Assembly (NCBI GenBank): GCA_016206785.1
Contig: JACQQV010000012.1
Coordinates: 9,176 to 73,175 of the forward strand
DNA from: Candidatus Omnitrophota bacterium
Lineage (GTDB): Bacteria > Omnitrophota > Gorgyraeia > JACQQV01
Direction of reading: 5' to 3'
Length of the DNA: 64,000 nucleotides
Made by a program: the position numbers and the translations under genes. The notes beneath the pieces are model-generated. The model saw only the letters and a program-made list of their open reading frames with translations. It searched no databases and was not told where the DNA came from. Shown here one piece after another: positions 2,700 to 16,138 of this stretch. Numbering within the stretch: the first letter of the stretch is position 1; the number at the start of each line of letters is the position of its first letter.

Positions 2700-4430
2700 T
2701 TAGTTTATCAGATGGAGCCTCTTCCCGTCCATCCCCTTTTGCCAAATCTTCAGAAACAGACCAAACAGGATGATGCCAGCAATACTCATCCAGAAACCGA
2801 GAAGGGGCCTCCCGAGAAGAAGATAGCCGGGTCCCAGCAAGCAGAGAAGAAAAGATGTTGTCACAACACACCAGGAGCCGATCCCTTGGAAAAGTTCCTG
2901 AAATGCCACACTTTTGCCTTCCGCAACCTTTCCCCAGAAAAGGGCGGGAGGTTTTACTTTCTCAAAAAACTCTTTTTGTCTTTGGAGGGAAGTGGGCGGC
3001 GTTAAAAAAGTGATGATGAGCGCAATTAAAAGAGACAGACTACAAGTTATGAGAAATCTGGTATCAAAGGCAAGTTTTGTCTGAGTTTCCAAAACGATGG
3101 CAATGACGAAAGAACTTGCCATGGTCCCCATCTCCGTATAAGCATTTACCCGCCACCAGATCCAGCGTAAAACGCGGACCGTCCCGAGCCCCGCCGTCAT
3201 CGCAAAGAGAAACTGCCAGACGCCCGCGATGGATTCCATCTGAAGCGCCAGCAAAAGCGCTGTCACGCCGAGGATAAGTTCTGTCACCTTTGCGGCCAGC
3301 ACATAATGTGTTGGACTTTCCCGGGGCCGTAAGAAACGGGCGTAGACATCGTGAATCAGATAACTTGTTCCCCAGTTGAGATGCGTGTCAATCGTGCTCA
3401 TGAAGGCGGCGACCATCGCTGTCACAAGGAGTCCCAGCATGCCTGCGGGAAGGACCTCTGTCATCATCTTGGGATACGCCATCTCCGGATCTTCCAGGCC
3501 AGGAAAAGTCACGGCTGCAACAAGTGCCGTCAGGATCCAGGGCCAGGTCCTCAAGACATAGTTCGCAAAGACAAACCAGAGGGTTCCTCGGTAGGCGTCC
3601 TTCTCTGACTTTGCCGCAAGCATCCGCTGCGAAAGGTAGCCGCCCCCTTCGATTTCCAATTTGTTCCACCACATGATGAGCACATAGGTGAAAAAAGCGG
3701 CCCAGGGAAGGGAAGGTCCCAGCGCATTTGCCGTCGGAAAAGGGGAAAGCATCGCCTCGGCACCCTGCGGACCAAAGTTCAGCTTAAGTTTCTCAAGAAG
3801 TCCCCCCAATCCCCCGACAGATTGGACAGACGCCCAGGCCAGGAAATACGAGCCTATCATCGCCATTGCAAATTGAAATAGATCCGTCATCACAACCCCC
3901 CAGAGACCTGAAAGAAGGGTGTATAGGATGACAAAAGAAAGAGAGAGGCTCATTGAAAAAAGAGGCTCCCATCCTAAAAGGACCTTGAGGATCTTTCCCA
4001 TCGCAAGGAGAACCCATCCCATCGTCATACAGTTGAGAAGAAGTCCGTGGTAGAGCGCTAAAAATCCCCTCAGGATACTTGCCTCTTTTCCGCTGTAACG
4101 AAGTTCGATGAGTTCTATATCCGTAAGAAGTTTAGCGCGCCGCCAAAGGGGGGCAAAGAGAACGGCAGAGGTAACCCCGGCAAACATCGCGGACCACCAG
4201 AGCCAGTTTCCGCTCACGCCATGTGTGAGGGTCAGTCCTGTGACGGCTAAGGGGGTATCGGCCGCAAAGGTTGTCGCGGCCATGCTCGTTCCCAAGATCC
4301 ACCAGGGGAGGGATCGGCCGGAGAGGAAATAGTGTTGGGGACTTAAGGAGGCCCGTTTTCGAAGGAGAAACGAGACACCGAGGGAAAGCAAAAGATAGGA
4401 AGCAAGGATAGTCCAATCAATAACATGCAT
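2700..4430 (-). CDS. sodium:solute symporter (SSF) family transporter
   Basis: A 576-aa polytopic membrane protein with an SSF-like N-terminus and overall pattern (GRSLPWWILGTSMAATTFAADTPLAVTG ... MSTIDTHLNW). Confidence 0.7.
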   Translation of the reverse strand: MHVIDWTILASYLLLSLGVSFLLRKRASLSPQHYFLSGRSLPWWILGTSMAATTFAADTPLAVTGLTLTHGVSGNWLWWSAMFAGVTSAVLFAPLWRRAKLLTDIELIELRYSGKEASILRGFLALYHGLLLNCMTMGWVLLAMGKILKVLLGWEPLFSMSLSLSFVILYTLLSGLWGVVMTDLFQFAMAMIGSYFLAWASVQSVGGLGGLLEKLKLNFGPQGAEAMLSPFPTANALGPSLPWAAFFTYVLIMWWNKLEIEGGGYLSQRMLAAKSEKDAYRGTLWFVFANYVLRTWPWILTALVAAVTFPGLEDPEMAYPKMMTEVLPAGMLGLLVTAMVAAFMSTIDTHLNWGTSYLIHDVYARFLRPRESPTHYVLAAKVTELILGVTALLLALQMESIAGVWQFLFAMTAGLGTVRVLRWIWWRVNAYTEMGTMASSFVIAIVLETQTKLAFDTRFLITCSLSLLIALIITFLTPPTSLQRQKEFFEKVKPPALFWGKVAEGKSVAFQELFQGIGSWCVVTTSFLLCLLGPGYLLLGRPLLGFWMSIAGIILFGLFLKIWQKGMDGKRLHLIN

Positions 4431-6442: not shown

Positions 6443-7177
6443 TCAGCGCCGGCTTCGCACTTTGCTCAGGAGCCTTAGCATTTCAAGGTAGAGCCAGATG
6501 AGTGTCACCATGAGGCCAAACGCAGCATACCACTCCATATATTTCGGGACGCCCCGAGTGGCCCCCTGCTCGATAAAGTCGAAATCAAGGACCAAGTTAA
6601 GGGCCGCGATGACTACTACCACCAGGCTAAAACCGATGCCGATCGGGCTCGCTTCGTGGATGAGCGGGATTCTCCCGCCGAAAAAACTCATAATAAAACT
6701 GATGAGATAAACGAGGCAGATGCCGCCCGTCGCTGCGACAACGCCCAGCTTAAAGTTCTCAGTCGGTCTTATGAGGCGCGATGTATAGGCAAGTAGAAGC
6801 GCCAAGAGGGTCCCAAAGGTGAGTGCAACCGCTTGAATGACGACCCCTGGAAATTGGGCCTCAAAGACGGCGGAGATCCCACCTAGAAATAGCCCCTCCA
6901 GGGCGGCGTAGAGGGGCGCTGTCACAGGGGCCCATTCCTTTTTAAAGACGGTCGCGATCGCCACCACAAATCCTGCAAGAGCCCCTAACCATGCAAGCAC
7001 AGGGATGCCCGCCCCTGAAAGTGTCTTCCCCCAAACCCAGGATGCCGTCATGAAAAGAAGAAGGAGCGAGATTCCTGTTTTGTTCACGGTTCCTTGAATC
7101 GTCATCGCCTGGTCTGTCCTGACGGCGATGTTTGTAAAGGTCTGCGCATTCAGCGCAGGATTCGCTGTCCGCATCAT
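6443..7177 (-). CDS. Bax inhibitor-1/YccA family membrane protein (FtsH modulator family)
   Basis: A 244-aa protein with seven predicted TM segments and a BI-1/YccA-like N-terminus. It sits next to hflKC and has a good RBS (AGGAGG). Confidence 0.7.
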   Translation of the reverse strand: MMRTANPALNAQTFTNIAVRTDQAMTIQGTVNKTGISLLLLFMTASWVWGKTLSGAGIPVLAWLGALAGFVVAIATVFKKEWAPVTAPLYAALEGLFLGGISAVFEAQFPGVVIQAVALTFGTLLALLLAYTSRLIRPTENFKLGVVAATGGICLVYLISFIMSFFGGRIPLIHEASPIGIGFSLVVVVIAALNLVLDFDFIEQGATRGVPKYMEWYAAFGLMVTLIWLYLEMLRLLSKVRSRR

Positions 7178-7187
7178 CGGTAACCTC

Positions 7188-8219
7188 CTATTCTTTCTTT
7201 TCCTGTTCGTAATTGATCGCCCGGATTGGATAAGGAATCACGATTCCCTCTTTGGCATAGCGCTCATGGAGGCGTTTTACAAATTCGTGTTTGATGAGAT
7301 ATTGGTCAACGAATTCCTTTGCCCTTAAGATAACCGTGAAATTAATGCTCGAATCCCCAAAGGTGTGATACCGGATAAAGGGTTCAAAGGTCGGGACCCC
7401 CCCTTTGATTTCCTTCATGACTTCCTTCGCAACCTCGCAGGTCACCTGTTCCACCTTCTTTAAGTCACTATTATAGTGGACCCCCACCTGTACCAGGACC
7501 GCCAATTCTGTGTCGGGAAGATAATAATTCACAACGATCGCCTGGGCGAGTTTAGCGTTCGGAACCAAGACTATATTGTTGGGAAGCATCCGGATCTTGG
7601 TGGTGCGCCAGGTGATATCAATCACATATCCCTCCTCCCCGGACTCCAATTTGATATAGTCTCCGATTTTGATCTGTCTTGCGAGAGTCACATGGACTCC
7701 TGCAAAAAGGTTAGAAAGCGTATCCTGTAACCCTAACGCAACCGCAAGCCCCCCAATGCCTAAGGTGGCCAGAATCGGGGCAATGGAGATTCCGAGGCTT
7801 TGGAGAATGATTAAAAAACCGATACCGAAGACGACAATCCGGGTCATGTTTTCGGTGAGGGAGGTCGTTGGCAAAGCGCCCCCCATTTTTGCAGCATATC
7901 TCTTGACCAGCTGTGTGGAGATCTTGGCCAAGACCCATGTGATGGAAAATATCCCGAGTGAGAGCAAAATTTTCCCAGAGGCATCAACAACTTTCTCCGG
8001 AAGTTTGGAAAACTCAAGGGAAAAATAGACGGCCAATATCAAGCACCAGATCATAAATGGGCCCTTCATTGCAGAAATGACGATATCGCCAATTCCTGTT
8101 TTGGTCTTTTGAGCCCATCCGGACAGACGCCTCAACAACACATTGCGTAAGAGATACCCGATTAAAAGTGTCCCCAAGAAAATGATAAGAGGCATAAAGA
8201 CTTCGACCAACGTCAACAT
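7188..8219 (-). CDS. small-conductance mechanosensitive channel (MscS family)
   Basis: Three TM helices followed by an MscS beta-domain (LGLQDTLSNLFAGVHVTLARQIKIGDYIKLESGEEGYVIDITWRTTKIRMLPNNIVLVPNAKLAQAIVVNY). Strong Shine-Dalgarno AAGGAGGTGA. Confidence 0.8.
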   Translation of the reverse strand: MLTLVEVFMPLIIFLGTLLIGYLLRNVLLRRLSGWAQKTKTGIGDIVISAMKGPFMIWCLILAVYFSLEFSKLPEKVVDASGKILLSLGIFSITWVLAKISTQLVKRYAAKMGGALPTTSLTENMTRIVVFGIGFLIILQSLGISIAPILATLGIGGLAVALGLQDTLSNLFAGVHVTLARQIKIGDYIKLESGEEGYVIDITWRTTKIRMLPNNIVLVPNAKLAQAIVVNYYLPDTELAVLVQVGVHYNSDLKKVEQVTCEVAKEVMKEIKGGVPTFEPFIRYHTFGDSSINFTVILRAKEFVDQYLIKHEFVKRLHERYAKEGIVIPYPIRAINYEQEKKE

Positions 8220-8220
8220 C

Positions 8221-8373
8221 TCACCTCCTTGTTTTATCTTTCTCCCTGGCTTGGTTTTCGTTCTCTTCTTCTCTTCCGAGATGTCGTTTCAAGACCTTCC
8301 CAAACGAAAAGATCGCCAAACTCAGAATACATGTCCAAGCAAAGAGCATGAATATCCAACCGCTGATCCTCAT
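8221..8373 (-). CDS. hypothetical small membrane protein (50 aa)
   Basis: A start at MRISGWIF has a GGGG Shine-Dalgarno 6 nt upstream, and its stop overlaps the mscS RBS. The longer ORF annotation (start 8442) would run through a terminator hairpin, so the shorter form is preferred. Confidence 0.3.
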   Translation of the reverse strand: MRISGWIFMLFAWTCILSLAIFSFGKVLKRHLGREEENENQAREKDKTRR

Positions 8374-8384
8374 CGGAACCCCTT

Positions 8385-8433
8385 TTGTGGCATAAAACCA
8401 AAAACCGCCACCTGAGTTAAACTCAGATGGCGG
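8385..8433 (-). terminator. rho-independent terminator (copy 1 of a repeated hairpin element)
   Basis: Stem ccgccacctgagtt/aactcagatggcgg (8405-8433) is followed on the minus strand by tttttggtttta. Confidence 0.5.
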
Positions 8434-8678
8434 CCCGACCATCTAGAATACCTCCCCAGAAAAATACCTGGAGACCCAATTTTTTGCTATCTACTATTTA
8501 AGTTACAGAACTAGTATAAAGGAAATCCGGCTTAAATGCAAGAAAAATATGGCGGAGGAACTGGGATTCTCTAGGGTGGATAAAAACCTCACCCAGAAGC
8601 TGCCTAAAGACCCAACGATGCGTCTCTTCTAAGTGAGGAGGTGTTGGGTCGACGAAGCCTCTGGGTGAGTCGAGTGTT

Positions 8679-8873
8679 CTACCGACGGGTTGCCGGTTTG
8701 CTCGGCATCGTTGTTTTTGCAGCAGCAGGCTTTGAGGGTGTCGTGCTACTTTTGTAAGTGCTCTTTTTCTTTTCGGGTCGCCTCCCCATTGCCAGTGCAT
8801 CTGTTGTGACCATGCCGAACAGAAATGCCAGTACAGTCAGCAAACTGAGATACCTTTTCGCAACGTCGTCCAT
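8679..8873 (-). CDS. hypothetical small secreted/basic Ser-Thr-rich protein
   Basis: A signal-peptide-like N-terminus (LSLLTVLAFLFGMVTTDALA) with an AAGGAG Shine-Dalgarno 5 nt upstream of the ATG. Confidence 0.45.
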   Translation of the reverse strand: MDDVAKRYLSLLTVLAFLFGMVTTDALAMGRRPEKKKSTYKSSTTPSKPAAAKTTMPSKPATRR

Positions 8874-8922
8874 TTGCGCTTCTCCTTCTGTTTAGACCAC
8901 TACTATCCAACCGGTTCTTCCA

Positions 8923-9366
8923 CTAATCCAGATATGGTGCCAGCTTCATCCAGGTCTTTTTGCCGACGACCCCATCGGCCTTCAGACCATTTGCCTTCTG
9001 GAAAGCCTTGACGGCCTCTTTCGTTTTGGGTCCCATTTTGCCATCAATTGGGCCTTTGTAAAATCCGGCAGACTTCAAGGCGGTTTGGATCTGCTTAATT
9101 GATAGCGGCTGCGCGCTCGTTTCTCTACTTTCCTTCTTTTGTCTATCAGACCTCCGAGGGATTTCACGTCTCCTCTCTAATTTATCTTCCAGCCTTTCAA
9201 TTTCTTGATCCTTTCTATCTGACTCTGCCTCAAGAAGGCTAATATGTTGTTTCAACGCTGCTACTTGAGACTCCTGCTTCCTGTGGGGAGTCGCACACCC
9301 TCCTACAAGAAGGGTCAAAAGGATACTCACGACGACATTCCAAGCCAACCTTACGACTCCAGTCAT
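8923..9366 (-). CDS. peptidoglycan-binding (PG_binding_1) domain lipoprotein
   Basis: A lipobox (LLVGGCA), a coiled-coil segment, and a C-terminal PG-binding domain (LKSAGFYKGPIDGKMGPKTKEAVKAFQKANGLKADGVVGKKTW). Confidence 0.7.
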   Translation of the reverse strand: MTGVVRLAWNVVVSILLTLLVGGCATPHRKQESQVAALKQHISLLEAESDRKDQEIERLEDKLERRREIPRRSDRQKKESRETSAQPLSIKQIQTALKSAGFYKGPIDGKMGPKTKEAVKAFQKANGLKADGVVGKKTWMKLAPYLD

Positions 9367-10067
9367 TCTTCCAAATACCCCCTCAGTTCTTCCCAGGTTT
9401 TTGGACCTACGACCCCATCGGGAGCAAGACCTTTGGACCGCTGAAAGCCCCTGATGGCCTGTTTTGTTTGCGACCCTACTTTCCCATCAATGTCGCCCGT
9501 GTAAAATCCAGCTCTCTTCAGTGCTGTTTGAATTTTAATGCCCCTGTCTTTGGATTTAAGGCGGTAGCTCATAATTTCATCTTGAAGGTCGCTTTTTTCT
9601 GTCACTTCCCTCGTCTCTGCGATGTATGGTGCACTTTCTAAGGGAGCAAATGGTATCTCTTCTAAAATCGGATCTCCCAATGACGCTGTATCTAACGTGG
9701 ATACCGATTTTCTTCTTTCGTTGACTTGCGCCCATGTTTTAAAGTCCACGATGCCGGTGGACCGGAGTCTTTCCGCCTTTTGAAATTTTCGGATTGCATC
9801 CCTGGTCCTTGGACCCATCTCTCCGTCAATAGGACCAAGTTGGAATCCGATATCTTTCAAGATATTCTGCAATTCTCTAACGTGAGGGTTTCGCCCGGAG
9901 ACATCTCCCAGGACCTTCTCCTCCTCCGAGGCAACCCTTTCCTTAGAGAAAAAGTTGGTCACATGATTCCTTACAGGCTTAACAAACAGTAACGTCAAGA
10001 CGCCTGCAACAACGAGGATGCCTGTTGTCCTTAATAGATAACTTCTTCCAACATCGTTTTCTATCAC
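9363..10067 (-). CDS. protein with two peptidoglycan-binding (PG_binding_1) domains
   Basis: An N-terminal TM/signal segment followed by two PG_binding_1 repeats (LGPIDGEMGPRTRDAIRKFQ...; FYTGDIDGKVGSQTKQAIRGFQRSKGLAPDGVVGPKTW). Confidence 0.7.
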   Translation of the reverse strand: MIENDVGRSYLLRTTGILVVAGVLTLLFVKPVRNHVTNFFSKERVASEEEKVLGDVSGRNPHVRELQNILKDIGFQLGPIDGEMGPRTRDAIRKFQKAERLRSTGIVDFKTWAQVNERRKSVSTLDTASLGDPILEEIPFAPLESAPYIAETREVTEKSDLQDEIMSYRLKSKDRGIKIQTALKRAGFYTGDIDGKVGSQTKQAIRGFQRSKGLAPDGVVGPKTWEELRGYLEE

Positions 10068-10094
10068 TGCTGAACCCTATTTATAGAAGGGATC

Positions 10095-11057
10095 TTATTC
10101 AACAGGAATAAGTATCTTCTGGCCGGCCTTCAGGTTGTCAGGATTTTTGATTCTAGCCTTGTTCAATTCATAAAGGTATTTCCAACGGTGTCCGCTCCCA
10201 AGCTGTGTTTTAGCGATCTTCGAAAGGGAATCACCGGCTTGGACAGTATATTCTCTTGTTGAAACTTTAACGGCGGACTCGACTTTCTCTTGTCTTTCTT
10301 CGAGATATTTGCCCTCTTCAATCATTTTTATGCCTGTCACGGGGGGCGGCCCTTCATAAGGAAGCATAACATCTTCGACTTCAGCAATCATAAACTGGGC
10401 GTTTCGGTCTTTTTGCATTCCCACCAGGTCGGTAATCGGGGCGATCGCATCAAGTTTTCCCCGGCTGACGATACGGATACGGTCTTCGTCGATACCACGC
10501 TCAATTATAAATTTCTTAACCACTTCCGCGCGGCGCCGACCTAATCTTTCGTTATACGCCTCCGAGCCGCGGATATCGGCGCTTCCGGTAACCAAGATAC
10601 TTGCCTCCGGATTTCCTTTCAGCGCCTTGACCGCATTATTCAAAATAGGAATGTGATCTGTTCTCAAATCTGCTTTGTCAAAGTCAAAATAGATTTTCAC
10701 ATTTTTGATGATTTTCTTGATCAGCAAAGAGGGCCTCAGCTCCTTCGGTTTTGGCGGCGGCAATTCCTCCGCTTTGTAGTCAAAAATAATCTTGAAGACG
10801 TAGACATAGCCTCGATTCCCCCAAGGCCTTATCTTCCCTGGTTGGGTGGGCCACCACCAGTAGCCCCCGCGTTCCCTGTCTTTCACAGGATCTGGTTTGG
10901 CATCTGTCGGCCACCATTCAAAGCGCCTCTGAAGTGCTTCCATTTCCCGTTTTCTTTTTTCCTTGCGAGCTCCTTTATCCGCGGCATGAGAAAGTTGGAG
11001 TGAAGAAAACAGAAAGATCAATAGGATGGAAAAGGTGGTGAATTTTTGTCTACGCAT
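10095..11057 (-). CDS. OmpA-family peptidoglycan-associated protein with C-terminal LysM domain
   Basis: Signal peptide (LLIFLFSSLQLSHA), an OmpA_C-like core (ILVTGSADIRGSEAYNERLGRRRAEVV) and a LysM domain (YTVQAGDSLSKIAKTQL...ILIPV). Confidence 0.75.
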   Translation of the reverse strand: MRRQKFTTFSILLIFLFSSLQLSHAADKGARKEKRKREMEALQRRFEWWPTDAKPDPVKDRERGGYWWWPTQPGKIRPWGNRGYVYVFKIIFDYKAEELPPPKPKELRPSLLIKKIIKNVKIYFDFDKADLRTDHIPILNNAVKALKGNPEASILVTGSADIRGSEAYNERLGRRRAEVVKKFIIERGIDEDRIRIVSRGKLDAIAPITDLVGMQKDRNAQFMIAEVEDVMLPYEGPPPVTGIKMIEEGKYLEERQEKVESAVKVSTREYTVQAGDSLSKIAKTQLGSGHRWKYLYELNKARIKNPDNLKAGQKILIPVE

Positions 11058-11090
11058 CGTTTTTCGTTTTCATGGCTCATTTCTAATTAA

Positions 11091-11107
11091 AGCAAGTTGT
11101 GTGCCAA
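11091..11107 (-). promoter_or_regulatory. sigma-54 (-24/-12) promoter reading toward the OmpA-LysM/PG-binding operon
   Basis: The minus strand reads TTGGCAC-acaac-TTGCT, an exact TGGCAC-N5-TTGC match with canonical GG/GC spacing. It lies ~35 nt upstream of the ATG at 11057. Confidence 0.55.
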
Positions 11108-11152
11108 CCCTGATAAAAATAAGAAAGGCTTCTTAACTCATTGTAAGAAGCC
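11108..11152 (-). terminator. rho-independent terminator downstream of the response-regulator gene
   Basis: Stem ggcttctta/taagaagcc (11127-11152) is followed on the minus strand by tttcttatttttatc. Confidence 0.5.
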
Positions 11153-11241
11153 ATGTTATAGAAAAAGTCGATTTTCTACTGTCTCACAGATAATCTGGTA
11201 TGCTGTAAAAGAATTTGTCTGTCAGACAAGTTTTCTGCCTT

Positions 11242-12663
11242 TTAATCCTCTTGGATATGGACCTCCTTTCTGATACCCAGTTTGTTTATTTTATCTTTTA
11301 ACGTGGGGCGGCTAATTCCTAACAGTTTCGCCGCTTGGGTTTGGTTACCCTGCATCTTCTTCAGCACCTCAATGAGTAAGATTTTCTCGGTCTCTTCAAC
11401 AACGTTTGCATATAGTGAACCTTTCTTAGCGTCAACCTGTTGTCTAACCATTTGACGTAACGCGCTCTGGAACTGGCGCGGCGGTTCCTCTTGTCTGGTA
11501 CGATCTTCTTTCTCAATCGAGACACACTCTGGGAGAAGGGTGCTTCCCTTGCCAAGAAGGATCGCCCTTTTGATGACGTTTTCCAGTTCTCTCACATTCC
11601 CCGGCCAATCATACATCTGTAACGTCTGAAGCGCCTCAGGAGAAATCCTGCGTATCTCCTTCCCAAACTCCCTGTTGTATTTGACCAAGAAGTATTCTAC
11701 AAGCTGAGGGATGTCTTCCTTACGATCCCGTAGCGGCGGAATCATAATCGTCATGGCATTGAGTCTGTAGTATAAGTCTTCTCTGAACTTATTTTCTTTG
11801 ATAAGTGCCTCCAAATCTCTATTGGTCGCGGCAATTAGCCGGACATCGGCCCGAATGGAATTATTCCCGCCTAACCTTTCAAAAGATTTGTCTTCCAAGA
11901 TGCGCAAAACCTTTGCCTGGGTTGCATGGGACATATCCCCAATTTCATCCAAAAAGATTGTGCCACCATGGCACTGCTCCAGTCTCCCGATCCTGCGCTC
12001 TTTCGCATCGGTGAAGGCACCCTTTTCATATCCAAAGAGTTCGCTTTCTAAAAGGGAATCCGGGATCGCTGCTGAATTAATGATCAAAAAGGACTTATCT
12101 TTCCGTTTGGAGTGGTGATAGATCGCCCGGGCGATGAGTTCCTTGCCTGTTCCACTTTCGCCCCTTAAAAGGACAGTGACATCGCTTGCGGTAACACTGC
12201 CAACCAGCTTATACACCTGTTGCATGTTGAAGGAGGATCCGACGATCCTGTCCCCTTTGAAGGGTTCCTTGGGCTCATAGGTAACCTCTGTCCTCATGAT
12301 TCTTCCTACCTCAAGGGCCTCTTCAATTGTCTTTTTAATCTCACGGACATCAAATGGCTTGATCACATAGTCATAGGCACCCAGTCTCATCGCTTCAATC
12401 GCGGTCTCCGTTGTCCCAAAAGCAGTCATCAAAATAACCGGTATTTTATAGTCGATCTCTTTCAGTTTTGTAAATGCGTCCAACCCTGTCATCCCAGGCA
12501 TCCGGATATCCATAATGGTAAGGTCAATCGTCTGGCTTTTAGCGATAGAAAGTGCCTCTTGTGCATGATTGGCGGTAAGAACTTGATATCCGTCTTGTGC
12601 GAGGATCTTCTTGAAGGAAGAAAGCATATTTTTCTCGTCATCGACAACAAGGATTCTATTCAT
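11242..12663 (-). CDS. sigma-54-dependent Fis-family response regulator (NtrC/AtoC/ZraR type)
   Basis: A REC domain (ILVVDDEKNM...DLTIMDIRMPGMTGLD), an AAA+ sigma-54 activator domain (GESGTGKELIARAIH, GAFTDA, ESELFGYEKGAFTDA) and a C-terminal Fis-type HTH (AAKLLGISRPTLKDKINKLGI). Confidence 0.9.
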   Translation of the reverse strand: MNRILVVDDEKNMLSSFKKILAQDGYQVLTANHAQEALSIAKSQTIDLTIMDIRMPGMTGLDAFTKLKEIDYKIPVILMTAFGTTETAIEAMRLGAYDYVIKPFDVREIKKTIEEALEVGRIMRTEVTYEPKEPFKGDRIVGSSFNMQQVYKLVGSVTASDVTVLLRGESGTGKELIARAIYHHSKRKDKSFLIINSAAIPDSLLESELFGYEKGAFTDAKERRIGRLEQCHGGTIFLDEIGDMSHATQAKVLRILEDKSFERLGGNNSIRADVRLIAATNRDLEALIKENKFREDLYYRLNAMTIMIPPLRDRKEDIPQLVEYFLVKYNREFGKEIRRISPEALQTLQMYDWPGNVRELENVIKRAILLGKGSTLLPECVSIEKEDRTRQEEPPRQFQSALRQMVRQQVDAKKGSLYANVVEETEKILLIEVLKKMQGNQTQAAKLLGISRPTLKDKINKLGIRKEVHIQED

Positions 12664-12674
12664 TCAAAACCTCT

Positions 12675-14015
12675 TTAAGCCAACGTACCACTATCCTTCA
12701 ACGGAATGGGCAATCTCATGTTTAATCGAGTTCCTCCCCCTGCCTCGCTATTTATCGTAATGACCCCTTTATGCATCTGAATAATCCTAGAGGCAATAAA
12801 TAGCCCCAACCCTATCCCAGTCTGTTTGGTGGTAAAGAAGGGCTCAAATAATTTCTTCTTTAGATCAGGAGGTATCCCAACGCCCGTATCTTTGAACTCG
12901 ATGTCTAAAACGCCGGCTGATTTCCTGTCTCCGTTTTTCATGGAGGTGGATATCTCTAATCTTCCGCCATGGGGCATCGCCTCAATGGCATTTAGCAGGA
13001 TGTTTAAAAATGCCTGGCGCATCTGCTCCTTATCTATTTCAACTTCGAGGGAGACGGCTTCCCATCTCTTATGGATTTCGATTTTCTGGGAGGAGACTTT
13101 CGGTGAAAGAAAGTCAACGGTTGACTCTAACACACGGTGGATGTCAACCCTCTGAAGATTTGGCTCAGGAGGGCGCGCAAAATCAAGAAAGTTCTGCACG
13201 ATCTTCTCCATCCTATTTATCTCCTCGTTGATGACAGCCGTATCATCTTTTGCACTTAGATTTTCTTTAAGTTCCTCCTGTAGAGAATGGACTCTCATTT
13301 TAATGGCTGACAAGGGATTCCTGATCTCATGGGCAATCGTGGCAGAGAGTTGCCCCAAAGAGGCCATCTTGGCAGATTGGACCAGTTGTTCTCCGACCTT
13401 GCGCGCAATCAAAAACCCCATGACTAAACCGAGACAGAGGGTAATGAGAATGGTTACCCAAATCAGGGAGGTCATTTTGATCGCATTCCTTCGGGAAGAG
13501 GCCTCGGCCTTGACGATCAGCGATTCATTTGTGAGGATGAGGTCCTCACATTTTTGATAGAGCGCGTCAATGCTATTTTTCATGTCATTCAGGAGAATCC
13601 CTTTGGCTTCTGTTACATTGCCTCCTTGGTATAACCCAATGGCCCTGTTTCTCTGGTTATCATATACTTTATATAAGGCACGGATATCTTGGAGGATCCT
13701 TTTTTCCTCAGGGGTCAAGGCCACCTCTTGAGCGTTTTTAAACCAGATGTCAAAGTCCCTTTTCTTTTCCTCAAGCGTTCTAAGCCATTCTGGATTCCCA
13801 TCTAAAATATAACTTGATACCATCCCTTTTTGATTGAGTAAAGCCAGTTCCAATTCCTCGGCTGCTTTTAAGCTTGAGACATTCTCCTTCATAATGGATC
13901 GGGAGACATTCTGGAGATTTTTTGTTGTGATAAAGGTAAAATATCCAACTAAAATTAACAGGAATGCCATCACGGCGAGGCCACCGATGATCCTGTGGCT
14001 AAATGCGACTTTCAT
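12675..14015 (-). CDS. sensor histidine kinase (HisKA + HATPase_c, two-TM periplasmic sensor)
   Basis: Two TM segments flank a ~150-aa periplasmic domain. It has an H-box (HEIRNPLSAIKM), N-box (ILLNAIEAM) and G-boxes (DTGVGIP, GIGLGL). Confidence 0.85.
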   Translation of the reverse strand: MKVAFSHRIIGGLAVMAFLLILVGYFTFITTKNLQNVSRSIMKENVSSLKAAEELELALLNQKGMVSSYILDGNPEWLRTLEEKKRDFDIWFKNAQEVALTPEEKRILQDIRALYKVYDNQRNRAIGLYQGGNVTEAKGILLNDMKNSIDALYQKCEDLILTNESLIVKAEASSRRNAIKMTSLIWVTILITLCLGLVMGFLIARKVGEQLVQSAKMASLGQLSATIAHEIRNPLSAIKMRVHSLQEELKENLSAKDDTAVINEEINRMEKIVQNFLDFARPPEPNLQRVDIHRVLESTVDFLSPKVSSQKIEIHKRWEAVSLEVEIDKEQMRQAFLNILLNAIEAMPHGGRLEISTSMKNGDRKSAGVLDIEFKDTGVGIPPDLKKKLFEPFFTTKQTGIGLGLFIASRIIQMHKGVITINSEAGGGTRLNMRLPIPLKDSGTLA

Positions 14016-14154
14016 GATTCTTTGTTTTGGCCTCCTTTACTTTTTCCTTCTTTGCGCCTGCTCACAACAATCGCGTAAATGAAGAAGAAAATAACTGCTC
14101 CCAAAAGAATGTAAACAGGCCAATCTTTCTCCAGGTTCAACGAGATCATAAACG

Positions 14155-14198
14155 TTTTCCCTATTAAAAAGCCGCCATCTGACAGAGTCAGATGGCGG
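14155..14198 (-). terminator. rho-independent terminator (copy 2 of the repeated hairpin element)
   Basis: Perfect stem ccgccatctga/tcagatggcgg (14172-14198) followed on the minus strand by ctttttaatag. Confidence 0.5.
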
Positions 14199-14339
14199 CC
14201 CGACCATCTCGGTCTCCTCCAGAGGCGGAAAATCCGTCTCCGGACCCTTTGATCAATTATCTATTCCAAGATACCACTCTTCTTGAGAAATCGCAAAGAA
14301 AAATTTCAAAGGATATTACGGCAGAACTGGAGAGATGCC

Positions 14340-14624
14340 TTACTCCTTAGGATGAATTTCTGCTATGAGTTCCTCATAAATGGTCTTGCGAGGACCCACG
14401 CCTACTACTACGACCGTAATCACCTGGCGCTCGATTCGATAAACAATCCGAAAGCGTCTGGCACGAAAAGAATAGAGTCCCGCAAGCTCATCACGCAGGA
14501 GTTTTCCGATTGATGGGTCTCTGCGGATATCCTCTAGGGCTCCGCGAATGTAACGCTTAGTCTGTGGCGGGAAGGTGCGAAGCGCAGCTTCTACTTTTGG
14601 CGTAACGACAAGACGCCACGTCAC
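14340..14624 (-). CDS. type II toxin, RelE/ParE family
   Basis: A 94-aa protein with a RelE/ParE-like pattern (RFRIVYRIERQVITVVVVGVGPRK). It overlaps the upstream antitoxin gene by 4 nt. Confidence 0.75.
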   Translation of the reverse strand: MTWRLVVTPKVEAALRTFPPQTKRYIRGALEDIRRDPSIGKLLRDELAGLYSFRARRFRIVYRIERQVITVVVVGVGPRKTIYEELIAEIHPKE

Positions 14625-14896
14625 ATACGGCCCCAGCGAATTTTCTCCAGAGGAATTCCCTTACCCCCCCGACGAAAATACCGAAGGGAAGAGCGTATCT
14701 GGGCCATTAGTTTGGGGTCTTGTTTAATCGCGAGTGTTTCTGCAATGGACTCCCATTCATCATAAGAGACCAAGACCGCAGCAGGTTTTCCCTTGGCGGT
14801 AATGACCACTTCATCTCCTAAGCGATTCACCCGGCGCACCGCCTCCAAGGCATGGGTCCGAAACTCGGTTACCGGCACGACATTCAATAGTTTCAT
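14621..14896 (-). CDS. type II antitoxin, Phd/YefM family
   Basis: A 91-aa protein with a Phd/YefM-like N-terminus (VPVTEFRTHALEAVRRVNRLGDEVVITAKGKPAAVLVSYDEWESIAETL). Confidence 0.75.
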   Translation of the reverse strand: MKLLNVVPVTEFRTHALEAVRRVNRLGDEVVITAKGKPAAVLVSYDEWESIAETLAIKQDPKLMAQIRSSLRYFRRGGKGIPLEKIRWGRM

Positions 14897-14969: not shown

Positions 14970-15989
14970 TTAGCTCTCTTTCAAGCGATAGATCGTGGGG
15001 CGGGTAGACGAAGCGATCACAACGCCGTTCTTCACCAAAGGTTGAAGGATCTTGTAGACCTGTGCCCGTTTCACCCCCATGAGACGTTCGAGTTCCTTCA
15101 CGGTGAAGCCCGGCCTTTCCCTTAACTCAAGCAGAAGCCTCTCTTGTTTCCGTGTGAGCACGATGCGCTTGGGCAATCTGGGCAGCGCCAGTTCTGAAAG
15201 GCGCTGTTGGGTCCGTTCAAGGGTCGTCTGAATGGCAAACGCACAATACTCCAGCCAGGAGGTTAAATCTCCTTTTTCTTTCCGAACCTGTTGGATTGCT
15301 TCATAATAGCCTTCGTGATCCTCTTTAAAAAACTGGTCCACCGCAAAAAGATGTTGTGTATCAAATCCACGGCGATACAGAATCCAAGTTGCCAGGGCGC
15401 GGGCCGCTCGACCATTCCCATCCAAAAAAGGGTGGATGCGTGCCAATTCATAGTGAGCACAGGCAGAGACGATAATGGGATGAACCTGTCTGCCCTCCTT
15501 CTCCAGCCAGTTTAGAAGTGCTTGCGTGAGTGGGTGTGCTTCCTTGGGGGGCGGAGGGGTACAGATCACTTTCCCTTTTGACATGATGACGTTCTGCCTC
15601 TTTTTATAACGGCCCGCTTGATCTTTGGGTAACAATCCAGAGGTCAGCAGTTTGTGGAGACGAAGAAGGTTTGATTCTGTAATTGGCGTTTCGGGGGACA
15701 CTCGTGCAATCCACCGAAGGCTGGTCAGATAGTTCAAAACCTCGCGCTTGGCCTCAACTTCTGCCGAAACTGGTTTTCCTCGCACCAAGGCTTCGACTTC
15801 AGGAAGTGTTAAGGGATTTCCTTCAATCGCTGTCGAGAAGTGGGCGCGTTTGATCATCGCCTCAAGGCGGACCTTCTCAAGCCACGCGACCTCTACAGGG
15901 GCCCTTGTAATTTGAACCTTAAGGGCCTCTGCCTCTGCCATGAGGATTGAAAGACGATTGGTGATATGGTAGTGAGGATGATAAGACAT
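14970..15989 (-). CDS. Fic family protein (AMPylator-type, class II with N-terminal inhibitory helix)
   Basis: Fic motif HPFLDGNGRAARALATW, an inhibitory [S/T]xxxE[G/N] motif (STAIEGN) near the N-terminus, and a C-terminal wHTH-like region. Confidence 0.85.
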   Translation of the reverse strand: MSYHPHYHITNRLSILMAEAEALKVQITRAPVEVAWLEKVRLEAMIKRAHFSTAIEGNPLTLPEVEALVRGKPVSAEVEAKREVLNYLTSLRWIARVSPETPITESNLLRLHKLLTSGLLPKDQAGRYKKRQNVIMSKGKVICTPPPPKEAHPLTQALLNWLEKEGRQVHPIIVSACAHYELARIHPFLDGNGRAARALATWILYRRGFDTQHLFAVDQFFKEDHEGYYEAIQQVRKEKGDLTSWLEYCAFAIQTTLERTQQRLSELALPRLPKRIVLTRKQERLLLELRERPGFTVKELERLMGVKRAQVYKILQPLVKNGVVIASSTRPTIYRLKES

Positions 15990-16064: not shown

Positions 16065-16138
16065 TGGCTGCCCCGTTTGGACTCGAACCAAAACTAACAG
16101 ATCCAGAGTCTGTCGTGCTACCATTACACTACGGGGCA
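16065..16138 (-). tRNA. tRNA-Gln (anticodon CUG)
   Basis: Manual fold of the reverse complement UGCCCCGUAGUGUAAUGGUAGCACGACAGACUCUGGAUCUGUUAGUUUUGGUUCGAGUCCAAACGGGGCAGCCA. It has a 7-bp acceptor stem with U1-A72, a D-stem GUGU/GCAC, anticodon stem ACAGA/UCUGU with loop CUCUGGA (anticodon CUG), T-stem UUUGG/CCAAA with loop UUCGAGU, discriminator G, and an encoded CCA. Confidence 0.85.

Follow-up and report, generated by a model that had tools for sequence, protein, structure and literature searches.

How are the genes for a set of peptidoglycan-binding envelope proteins controlled when they follow directly on a two-component system of the sigma-54 type, and what controls the two-component system in its turn? 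The locus that raises this question lies in a stretch of 64,000 nucleotides (nt) from a Candidatus Omnitrophota bacterium (assembly GCA_016206785.1, contig JACQQV010000012.1, positions 9,176 to 73,175 of the forward strand), which is called the window here and whose numbering is used unless another locus is named. An initial annotation, made from these letters alone, described a sensor histidine kinase (HK) and an NtrC-type activator, a terminator hairpin, a sigma-54 promoter element and an operon for an OmpA_C+LysM protein and two PG_binding_1 proteins. Each of them was found in the same place, all on the minus strand, the genes by open reading frames (ORFs) and Pfam searches.

The best explanation for the locus is, with a probability that I put at about 0.72, a cascade of three tiers controlling the envelope proteins, in which a cation-responsive riboswitch would gate the kinase and the activator, and the activator would serve a sigma-54 promoter ahead of the envelope genes. 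The argument starts from the lower two tiers, which consist of the following parts.

12675-14015, minus strand: sensor HK (Pfam 4HB_MCP_1 1e-16, HisKA 3e-16, HATPase_c 6e-24)
11242-12663, minus strand: NtrC-family response regulator and sigma-54 enhancer-binding protein, the activator (REC, AAA+ and HTH_8; GAFTDA loop)
11215-11229, no strand assigned: candidate enhancer (upstream activating sequence, UAS), perfect 15-nt palindrome TTGTC-TGACA-GACAA, the local copy of a dyad TTNNC-N5-GNNAA
11204-11209, minus strand: TTTACA, a possible third half-site (TTNNC), 5 nt past the dyad
11113-11152, minus strand: putative intrinsic terminator ending the kinase/activator operon, a 9-bp hairpin and T-tract, between enhancer and promoter
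11091-11106, minus strand: predicted sigma-54 promoter TGGCAC-N5-TTGCT (GG 11105-11104, GC 11093-11092; predicted start near 11080)
10095-11057, minus strand: secreted OmpA_C-like and LysM peptidoglycan-binding protein (OmpA 6e-16, 59 bits, cutoff 27.2; LysM 1e-10, 41 bits, cutoff 20.9)
9363-10067, minus strand: N-terminally anchored double PG_binding_1 protein (Pfam 8e-37, 126 bits, cutoff 23, two matched stretches)
8923-9366, minus strand: probable lipoprotein with a coiled coil and one PG_binding_1 domain (Pfam 4e-21, 75 bits, cutoff 23; LVGGC lipobox)

The sigma-54 promoter and its probable activator

The sequence TGGCACACAACTTGCT at 11106-11091 is the sole exact match to TGGCAC-N5-TTGCW in the 64 kb, where shuffled sequences lead one to expect 0.01, which confirms the exact -24/-12 consensus claimed earlier. 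Matches with one or two mismatches are found in the window at chance level, and only the exact site stands out. From the end of the element to the ATG at 11057 there are 33 nt, close to the 35 or so first given, and a scan for sigma-70-like sites flagged none in the region between the activator and OmpA-LysM genes.

The upstream regions of 80 genome loci centred on OmpA-LysM orthologues were compared (loci carry the prefix L; L001 and L002, found by exact look-up, are copies of the window itself and stand apart from the 80). Further loci were collected by way of the kinase and the activator, which yielded 15 distinct orthologous loci, whose activators are 55-82% identical. In 14 of these 15 Omnitrophota loci, an element of the form TGGCA(C/T)-N5-(T/C/G)(T/C/G)GC(W/G) lies 107-147 nt past the activator stop codon, and the fifteenth, L111, reads TGGCAC-N5-TTGT, with TTGT at -12. 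The element is kept in place across these activators, while the flanking intergenic sequence has diverged. Conversely, about 75 assessable loci that have the OmpA-LysM gene without the HK/activator pair show no -24/-12 element, apart from a single match with 2 mismatches, 236 nt upstream. Among the 80 genome loci only L007 has HK and activator orthologues upstream, and L007 alone has a close and well-placed element. In L092 and L105, a P-type ATPase gene has come to lie behind the activator gene, and promoter and dyad, 2.8 kb away, remain together before the envelope operon. No argument for a functional promoter served by the adjacent activator is stronger than this co-occurrence, and this comparison of sequences supports the assignment of the promoter to that activator. 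One more locus, L106 (activator 59% identical), has glycosyltransferase neighbours and no intergenic -24/-12 element; it was treated as a paralogous system and left out of the counts.

Pfam identifies Response_reg (2e-32), Sigma54_activat (1e-68, model positions 1-167 of 168), AAA_lid_14 and HTH_8 (3e-12, residues 422-461) in the activator. As read from the translation, its receiver is complete (D8, D9, D52, T80, K102), Walker A (GESGTGKE) and Walker B (FLDEIGD) are both present, and the sigma-54 contact loop (residues 223-228) is GAFTDA instead of GAFTGA, as it is in every orthologue found. GAFTDA is a natural variant of GAFTGA that was recorded for the sigma-54 regulator DVU2106 (PMC4641369), and its effect was deemed uncertain for VfmH (PMC10714721). 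A paralogue in L096, 41% identical to the activator, has GAFTGA. More than 100 orthologues of the activator (53-82% identity) were found; those with a named source are Omnitrophota/Omnitrophica or an unclassified 'bacterium', and one, 53% identical, is labelled Thermodesulfobacteriota. The HK has a periplasmic four-helix-bundle sensor domain (4HB_MCP_1). Both proteins miss the NCBIfam equivalog cutoffs, the activator those for NtrC (480.5 against 558.6), AtoC (470.5 against 714) and ZraR (384.6 against 760), and the HK those for AtoS (230 against 646) and ZraS (174 against 479), so that the system falls outside the NtrBC, AtoSC and ZraSR orthologue groups.

No rpoN was found in the 64-kb window, either with an RpoN-box regular expression or by tblastn with three Omnitrophota RpoN sequences. 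Among the relatives, an rpoN gene, complete or partial, stands in convergent orientation right behind the PG_binding genes in L012 (2288-3703), L085/L086 (L085 9184-10524), L090, L104 (12883-14217), L108 (11611-12951) and L109 (11608-12951), all given coordinates being on the minus strand, and L007 has a C-terminal rpoN fragment about 2 kb further downstream, at the end of the locus. The window counterpart of this site (8478-8922) holds an ORF of 64 amino acids, a terminator-like hairpin and a second riboswitch, with no remnant of rpoN by tblastn. As rpoN lies beside the module in seven relatives, the lineage has sigma-54.

It could be argued that the sigma-54-like motif is non-functional and that the envelope operon relies on a housekeeping sigma factor or on read-through, as is presumably the case in the roughly 75 relatives whose orthologous OmpA-LysM gene lacks such a motif; the failure to find rpoN in the window and the GAFTDA loop would fit in with this. 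However, an exact consensus that is expected 0.01 times per window and is kept across such divergent activators, in an intergenic region without a flagged sigma-70-like site and with a terminator upstream, and in a lineage where seven relatives have rpoN beside the module, makes this explanation very improbable. A working sigma-54 promoter is therefore preferred in what follows.

The candidate enhancer and the terminator

Upstream of the promoter, the palindrome TTGTCTG-A-CAGACAA (11229-11215, minus strand) is perfect and unique in the window. It is found where it was first described, with one small correction: the plus strand had been quoted, and the coding (minus) strand has A at the centre. 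Taken alone the palindrome is not very improbable, as 18 of 100 shuffles contain a match with at most 2 mismatches, and its significance derives from conservation and not from its own improbability. The perfect palindrome is ruled out as the conserved sequence; six symmetric positions alone persist, TTNNC-N5-GNNAA.

This dyad was defined post hoc on 11 loci, with six specified positions, and four extra loci were fetched as a hold-out. Of the 11 training loci, 10 have its start 119-124 nt before the T of TGGCAC, compared with 0.13 of 11 in shuffled regions. Three of the four hold-out loci have it at -123, -123 and -125, and the fourth (L111) at -122 with one mismatch. In total, 13 of 15 loci carry the dyad at -119 to -125, while L085 (at the aligned position) and L111 have one mismatch each. 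The spacing also holds in L092, with its promoter away from the activator gene, and in L103, with a dyad overlapping the stop codon. From the predicted start, the centre of the dyad is some 140 nt upstream, as is normal for enhancers. Its neighbour TTTACA is present in 9 of the 15 distinct loci, the others having TTTGCA, TTTCCA, TTAACC or CTTACA, and dyad and TTTACA together make three alternating half-sites with a 10-bp spacing. The HTH_8 segment is nearly identical in the three orthologue translations compared (window, L085, L092), which fits a common recognition motif. The fixed distance to the promoter supports the dyad as an enhancer candidate for the activator, and the palindrome can be kept as a candidate UAS in this sense, as the local form of a dyad fixed some 120 nt upstream of the -24 element across loci. 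An RNA hairpin at the palindrome is ruled out, as a loop of 1 nt is too short for its 7-bp arms to fold back. By eye, no convincing site of the integration host factor (IHF) type (WATCAA-N4-TTR) was seen between enhancer and promoter, where no formal scan was made.

The promoter might also be used by an enhancer-binding protein that is encoded elsewhere, with the adjacent activator having other targets and the palindrome being an unrelated operator or a remnant. A degenerate dyad and a perfect palindrome that is not conserved in sequence leave some room for this. I consider it quite improbable, as the co-occurrence is strict (the promoter is found in 14-15 of 15 loci with the activator and in 0-1 of about 75 without it) and the distance between dyad and promoter is kept also where promoter and activator gene have an ATPase gene between them.

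The stem of the hairpin between dyad and promoter, at 11152-11127, consists of 9 bp and is followed by TTTCTTATTTTTAT (free energy dG -12.3 kcal/mol, z = -3.6), so that the terminator hairpin noted earlier is confirmed with its T-tract and with a fold energy below that of shuffles. It is kept with paired changes (CTT/AAG to CCT/AGG) in L085, L087, L104, L108 and L109, an unrelated strong hairpin stands in the same position in L107, and it is weak or absent in L007, L090, L092, L103 and L110. The hairpin is predicted to be an intrinsic terminator that keeps the kinase/activator transcript from running on into the target operon, and by blocking read-through a terminator at this place would make the output of the operon depend on the activator.

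The riboswitch upstream of the kinase

The initial annotation took the module to be self-contained, which is not borne out, as the HK/activator operon is headed by an nhaA-I riboswitch and no rpoN was found in the window; otherwise its interpretation gains comparative support. The parts upstream of the kinase are as follows.

14190-14247, minus strand: aptamer of the nhaA-I class (Li+/Na+) of riboswitches, head of the kinase/activator operon (Rfam RF03057, 51.4 bits, gathering threshold 37)
14166-14199, minus strand: predicted expression platform of the riboswitch, an intrinsic terminator whose 5' arm is the 3' strand of P2 (GCCGCCAUCUGAC / GUCAGAUGGCGGC followed by UUUUU)
14012-14149, minus strand: single-pass membrane protein of 45 amino acids, its stop overlapping the HK start codon (ATGA)

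The features of the nhaA-I class are present, namely the P1 and P2 helices and the conserved GGGU, AGG and GGUCGGGCCGCC nucleotides, with 92.7% of cells paired. The minimum-energy fold of this first copy consists of P1 and a terminator of 13-15 bp (dG -48.3 kcal/mol, z = -5.2). In both window copies (the second is described below), the 3' strand of P2 can pair downstream, giving a terminator of 13-16 bp and a U-tract as the minimum-energy fold, and the terminator overlaps this strand in the two of them and in all 11 copies inspected. Across 11 Omnitrophota copies, both sides change in 6 of the 8 pairs of P1. A sigma-70 scan flagged nothing upstream of either riboswitch; weak readings can be made by eye, TTGCGA-17-TATCTT (14296-14268) for the first and TTGCAT-17-TATACT (8541-8513) for the second.

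The Na+-II riboswitch of D. propionicus is a validated terminator-type ON switch that uses the 3' strand of P2 (PMC9646797), and the window RNA shares with it this platform and a similar base of P1 (UCC...GGA). The two differ in the P2 loop, where all Omnitrophota copies have a U (GGUCGGGCC), as in Li+-I and in the M4 mutant, and D. propionicus has GCCGGGCC with a C; the C that marks Na+-II at this position (C54 of the D. propionicus construct) is thus absent. The C54U mutant of the D. propionicus RNA responded to Li+, Na+ and NH4+ (PMC9646797). The ligand of the window riboswitches could be Li+, Na+ or both. Terminator-bearing nhaA-I variants have been reported in Deltaproteobacteria alone, upstream of hypothetical genes (White et al. 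2022, PMC9646797), whereas here they occur in Omnitrophota and one of them heads an HK/activator operon. The published association table of the class includes mscS and trehalose genes, and no kinase, response regulator, OmpA or peptidoglycan-binding gene (PMC9646797).

A covariance model was built from the 11 copies and run over all collected loci. The riboswitch stands directly upstream of HK orthologues in L007/L089, L084, L088, L090, L091 and L107. In L007, L088, L090 and L091 only about 12-25 nt separate its terminator from the HK start codon, with no small ORF between, which leaves no room for another promoter. Where the HK has no riboswitch, the gene directly upstream is a cation transporter in L109, L110 and L111, a tRNA gene in the L085 subclade and an unrelated gene in L103-L105 and L108. 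Elsewhere among the loci the riboswitch precedes MscS, OtsA-like, Band_7, OmpA-family and transporter genes. In L005 (2450-2505) it lies directly before the OmpA-LysM / PG_binding operon itself. L016 has two copies (2956-3015 and 8561-8617); the riboswitch stands before a pair of an OmpR-type response regulator and a 4HB-HAMP kinase upstream of the OmpA-LysM operon, and the second copy before an OmpA-family gene and an OtsA-like gene.

In these arrangements I am inclined, if with no great assurance, to see a hierarchy topped by a Na+/Li+ riboswitch, which gates a sigma-54 two-component system and through it peptidoglycan-tethering proteins, and which has been rewired in three ways: directly in L005, through an OmpR-type regulator in L016 and through a sigma-54 activator in the window.

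Alternatively, the riboswitch may be incidental, controlling the small membrane protein alone or serving as a general leader, while the two-component system is expressed constitutively from an internal promoter. A sigma-70-like match, TTTACA-16-TATTTT (9 of 12 positions), does lie inside the small ORF at 14115-14088, and the riboswitch is missing at many HK loci (see below). Promoter-like matches in this region are, however, rarer than in shuffles (3 against 7.3), the stop of the small ORF overlaps the HK start in the window, and the short distance between riboswitch terminator and HK start in the four loci named above leaves out the small ORF altogether. This reading is therefore unlikely. 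Co-occurrence and spacing taken together disfavour all three of the rivals considered, and control of the kinase and activator by the riboswitch is the reading carried forward.

The proposed cascade

In the first tier, a weak sigma-70-like promoter would transcribe the riboswitch at 14247-14190. Without ligand, the 3' strand of P2 would pair downstream and form the strong intrinsic terminator; with a cation bound (Na+ and/or Li+), P2 would form instead, no terminator would arise, and transcription would proceed into the genes of the 45-amino-acid membrane protein, the HK and the activator. In the second tier, the HK would sense a periplasmic or envelope signal through its four-helix bundle and phosphorylate D52 of the activator. 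In the third, the phosphorylated activator would assemble on TTGTC-N5-GACAA, and on the adjacent TTTAC, and use ATP to open the sigma-54 holoenzyme at TGGCAC-N5-TTGCT. The transcript would yield four envelope proteins: the OmpA_C+LysM protein, the membrane-anchored double PG_binding_1 protein, the lipoprotein with PG_binding_1 and a small, basic, secreted protein. This would probably increase the tethering of the envelope to the wall in ionic or osmotic stress, with these proteins made alongside an adjacent riboswitch-controlled MscS/osmoprotection unit. The sequence elements, their significance, conservation and co-occurrence are matters of observation; the ligand, the signal for the kinase, binding of the dyad by the activator, the transcription start and the physiological role are what I infer from them.

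Several observations weigh against this cascade. About 11 of the 18 assessable loci have no riboswitch upstream of the HK, so that the first tier is lineage-specific. The U in the P2 loop is that of Li+-I, where the validated Na+-II RNA has a C, which makes the ligand uncertain. No rpoN lies in the window, and the activator has GAFTDA where GAFTGA would be expected. The palindrome is degraded even in the closest relative, L101 (activator 82% identical), where it reads TTACC-GAATA-GCCAA, and the dyad that remains consists of six specified positions defined after the sequences had been inspected. Finally, the Shine-Dalgarno sequence ahead of the start codon is poor in the first target gene.

The neighbouring genes share an ion or osmotic theme, with MscS, trehalose synthesis, Na+/H+ exchangers, a P-type ATPase and a sodium:solute symporter. 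Cation transporters lie directly ahead of the kinase gene in L110 (3975-6973), L111 (4259-6999) and L109 (2746-6999), three relatives that lack the riboswitch, among them a Na+/H+ exchanger overlapping the kinase start, a CitMHS/NhaB-like protein and a P-type cation ATPase; a P-type cation ATPase also follows the activator gene in L092 (4434-7007) and likewise in L105. Such transporters beside the HK and activator in relatives reinforce the link of the two-component system to cation homeostasis.

Relation to known systems

The lower tiers resemble NtrB-NtrC and its target promoter glnAp2, with which they share a REC-AAA+-HTH_8 regulator and its cognate HisKA kinase, a GG-N10-GC promoter and a dyad enhancer about 100-150 nt upstream. 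They differ in the sensor, which is a periplasmic four-helix bundle in the window HK whereas NtrB is cytoplasmic and PAS/PII-controlled, in the targets, which are envelope proteins and not nitrogen assimilation, in the GAFTDA loop, and in an activator score below the NtrC cutoff. The promoter glnAp2 has tandem enhancer sites, whereas one dyad and one half-site were detected in the window. ZraS-ZraR with zraP, and PspF with pspA, likewise combine a sigma-54 activator with an adjacent envelope operon, and their envelope-located output responds to envelope or ion stress. In contrast to these, the window genes are in tandem with a terminator between them and not divergent, HK and activator score far below the ZraS and ZraR cutoffs, and in place of ZraP or PspA the targets are proteins that bind peptidoglycan (OmpA_C, LysM, PG_binding_1). 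Sigma-54 is reportedly a controller of the bacterial exterior, a survey-level generalisation by Francke et al. 2011. A sigma-54 promoter before envelope and peptidoglycan genes fits this pattern, and the survey covers neither the Omnitrophota nor this operon.

The sigma-54 module alone is an ordinary, textbook NtrC-family arrangement in an uncultivated phylum. To this it adds a well-supported promoter-enhancer pair and a candidate motif, TTNNC-N5-GNNAA, for an uncharacterised family of activators. The moderately novel part is the riboswitch-headed hierarchy with its three alternative wirings, and the cascade is unreported; no paper in the library searched links the Omnitrophota to sigma-54 function or to the nhaA-I riboswitch. 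A riboswitch class so far tied almost solely to cation transporters here heads a two-component operon, which would link intracellular Na+/Li+ sensing to the tethering of envelope and wall and would provide a natural series of regulatory solutions for one conserved operon. If true, this would be the first described nhaA-I case that controls a signal-transduction system and cell-wall-anchoring proteins, and terminator-type nhaA-I variants would extend beyond the Deltaproteobacteria. Omnitrophota are ultra-small and often host-dependent, and almost nothing is known of their envelope biology. An OmpA-LysM protein that is highly conserved throughout the phylum and under stress control offers a concrete entry point, and all parts of the module are short enough for work in a heterologous host.

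The envelope operon

The three genes behind the promoter are separated by a gap of 27 nt and an overlap of 4 nt, exactly as first noted. Their translations show export signals, namely a signal peptide in the OmpA-LysM protein, an N-terminal anchor in the double PG_binding_1 protein and a lipobox in the third. The OmpA-LysM and PG_binding proteins score below all Pal and OmpA equivalog cutoffs and are not Pal or OmpA orthologues. Relatives of the OmpA-LysM protein number 424 in reference genomes, nearly all of them Candidatus Omnitrophota, including Ca. Velamenicoccus archaeovorus, and more than 1300 homologues with about 60-85% identity are found in the protein database. Its Trp-rich N-terminal segment (residues ~40-120; FEWWPTDA...GGYWWWP...PWGNRGYVYV...EELPPP) is near-invariant across the Omnitrophota and matches no Pfam family; an AlphaFold2 model of the protein has a mean pLDDT (predicted local distance difference test score) of 63, and of 34-55, low confidence, in the Trp-rich region.

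Across loci, the promoter targets are always peptidoglycan-binding or -modifying. In most they are OmpA-LysM and PG_binding_1 proteins, with variants in L103 (PG_binding_1 alone), in L085, L104, L108 and L109 (a GHL10 glycosidase-like protein) and in L107 (Amidase_3). In several relatives, a stand-alone receiver-domain protein is encoded inside the sigma-54 operon, right after the OmpA-LysM gene (L007 4960-5301, L089 4426-4767, L090 9127-9468, L105 13287-13676, L111 9643-10014), or right before it in L016 (5362-5748). Its position hints at a phosphorelay branch or feedback; the gene is absent from the window.

Two features follow the PG_binding genes in the window and bear on the end of the operon.

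8679-8873, minus strand: secreted basic protein of 64 amino acids, probable fourth gene of the operon (AAGGAG 8 nt before the ATG)
8580-8670, minus strand: long compound hairpin, then TTTTT, probable end of the sigma-54 operon (dG -45.3 kcal/mol, z = -4.7)

A homologue of the 64-amino-acid protein, 62% identical, is encoded in the same position after the last PG_binding gene in L102/L095, and the gene is probably the fourth of the sigma-54 operon.

The second riboswitch unit and other neighbours

Behind the probable end of the sigma-54 operon lies the second riboswitch of the window.

8425-8477, minus strand: second nhaA-I aptamer, head of a small-ORF-MscS operon (RF03057, 52.3 bits, gathering threshold 37; predicted terminator 8402-8436)

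The unit that it heads runs on the minus strand from 8477 to about 2700, with an ORF for a 50-amino-acid membrane protein (8221-8373), MscS (7188-8219) and BaxI (6443-7177), and then, on the same strand and with short gaps, two Band_7 genes and a sodium:solute symporter (2700-4430). Judging by the short gaps, BaxI, the two Band_7 genes and the symporter probably belong to the MscS unit, and the whole is probably one riboswitch-headed operon for osmotic or ion stress. The same riboswitch-MscS arrangement is found in L061.

The 45-amino-acid membrane protein ahead of the HK is an annotated gene in L002, has homologues after nhaA-I riboswitches in L084, L019 and L107, and matches nothing in Pfam or NCBIfam. 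More generally, two families of tiny single-pass membrane proteins (about 45 and 50 amino acids; motifs DWP[VI]YILLGAV and SGWIFM) are encoded directly 3' of nhaA-I riboswitches, at times in tandem, and neither has a Pfam or NCBIfam match. They occur in the window (14012-14149 and 8221-8373, both minus strand), in L084 (387-624), L019 (5704-5986), L107 (14752-14862) and L005 (2227-2361 and 5058-5144). These proteins may be part of the 'hypothetical' genes in the published nhaA-I association table.

Directly 5' of the module lies a ParE/Phd (YefM) toxin-antitoxin pair (14340-14896, minus strand), preceded by a Fic-domain protein (14970-15989, minus strand; Pfam label from the L002 gene table) and a tRNA gene (16068-16138, minus strand). 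This stretch may be a variable or mobile junction.

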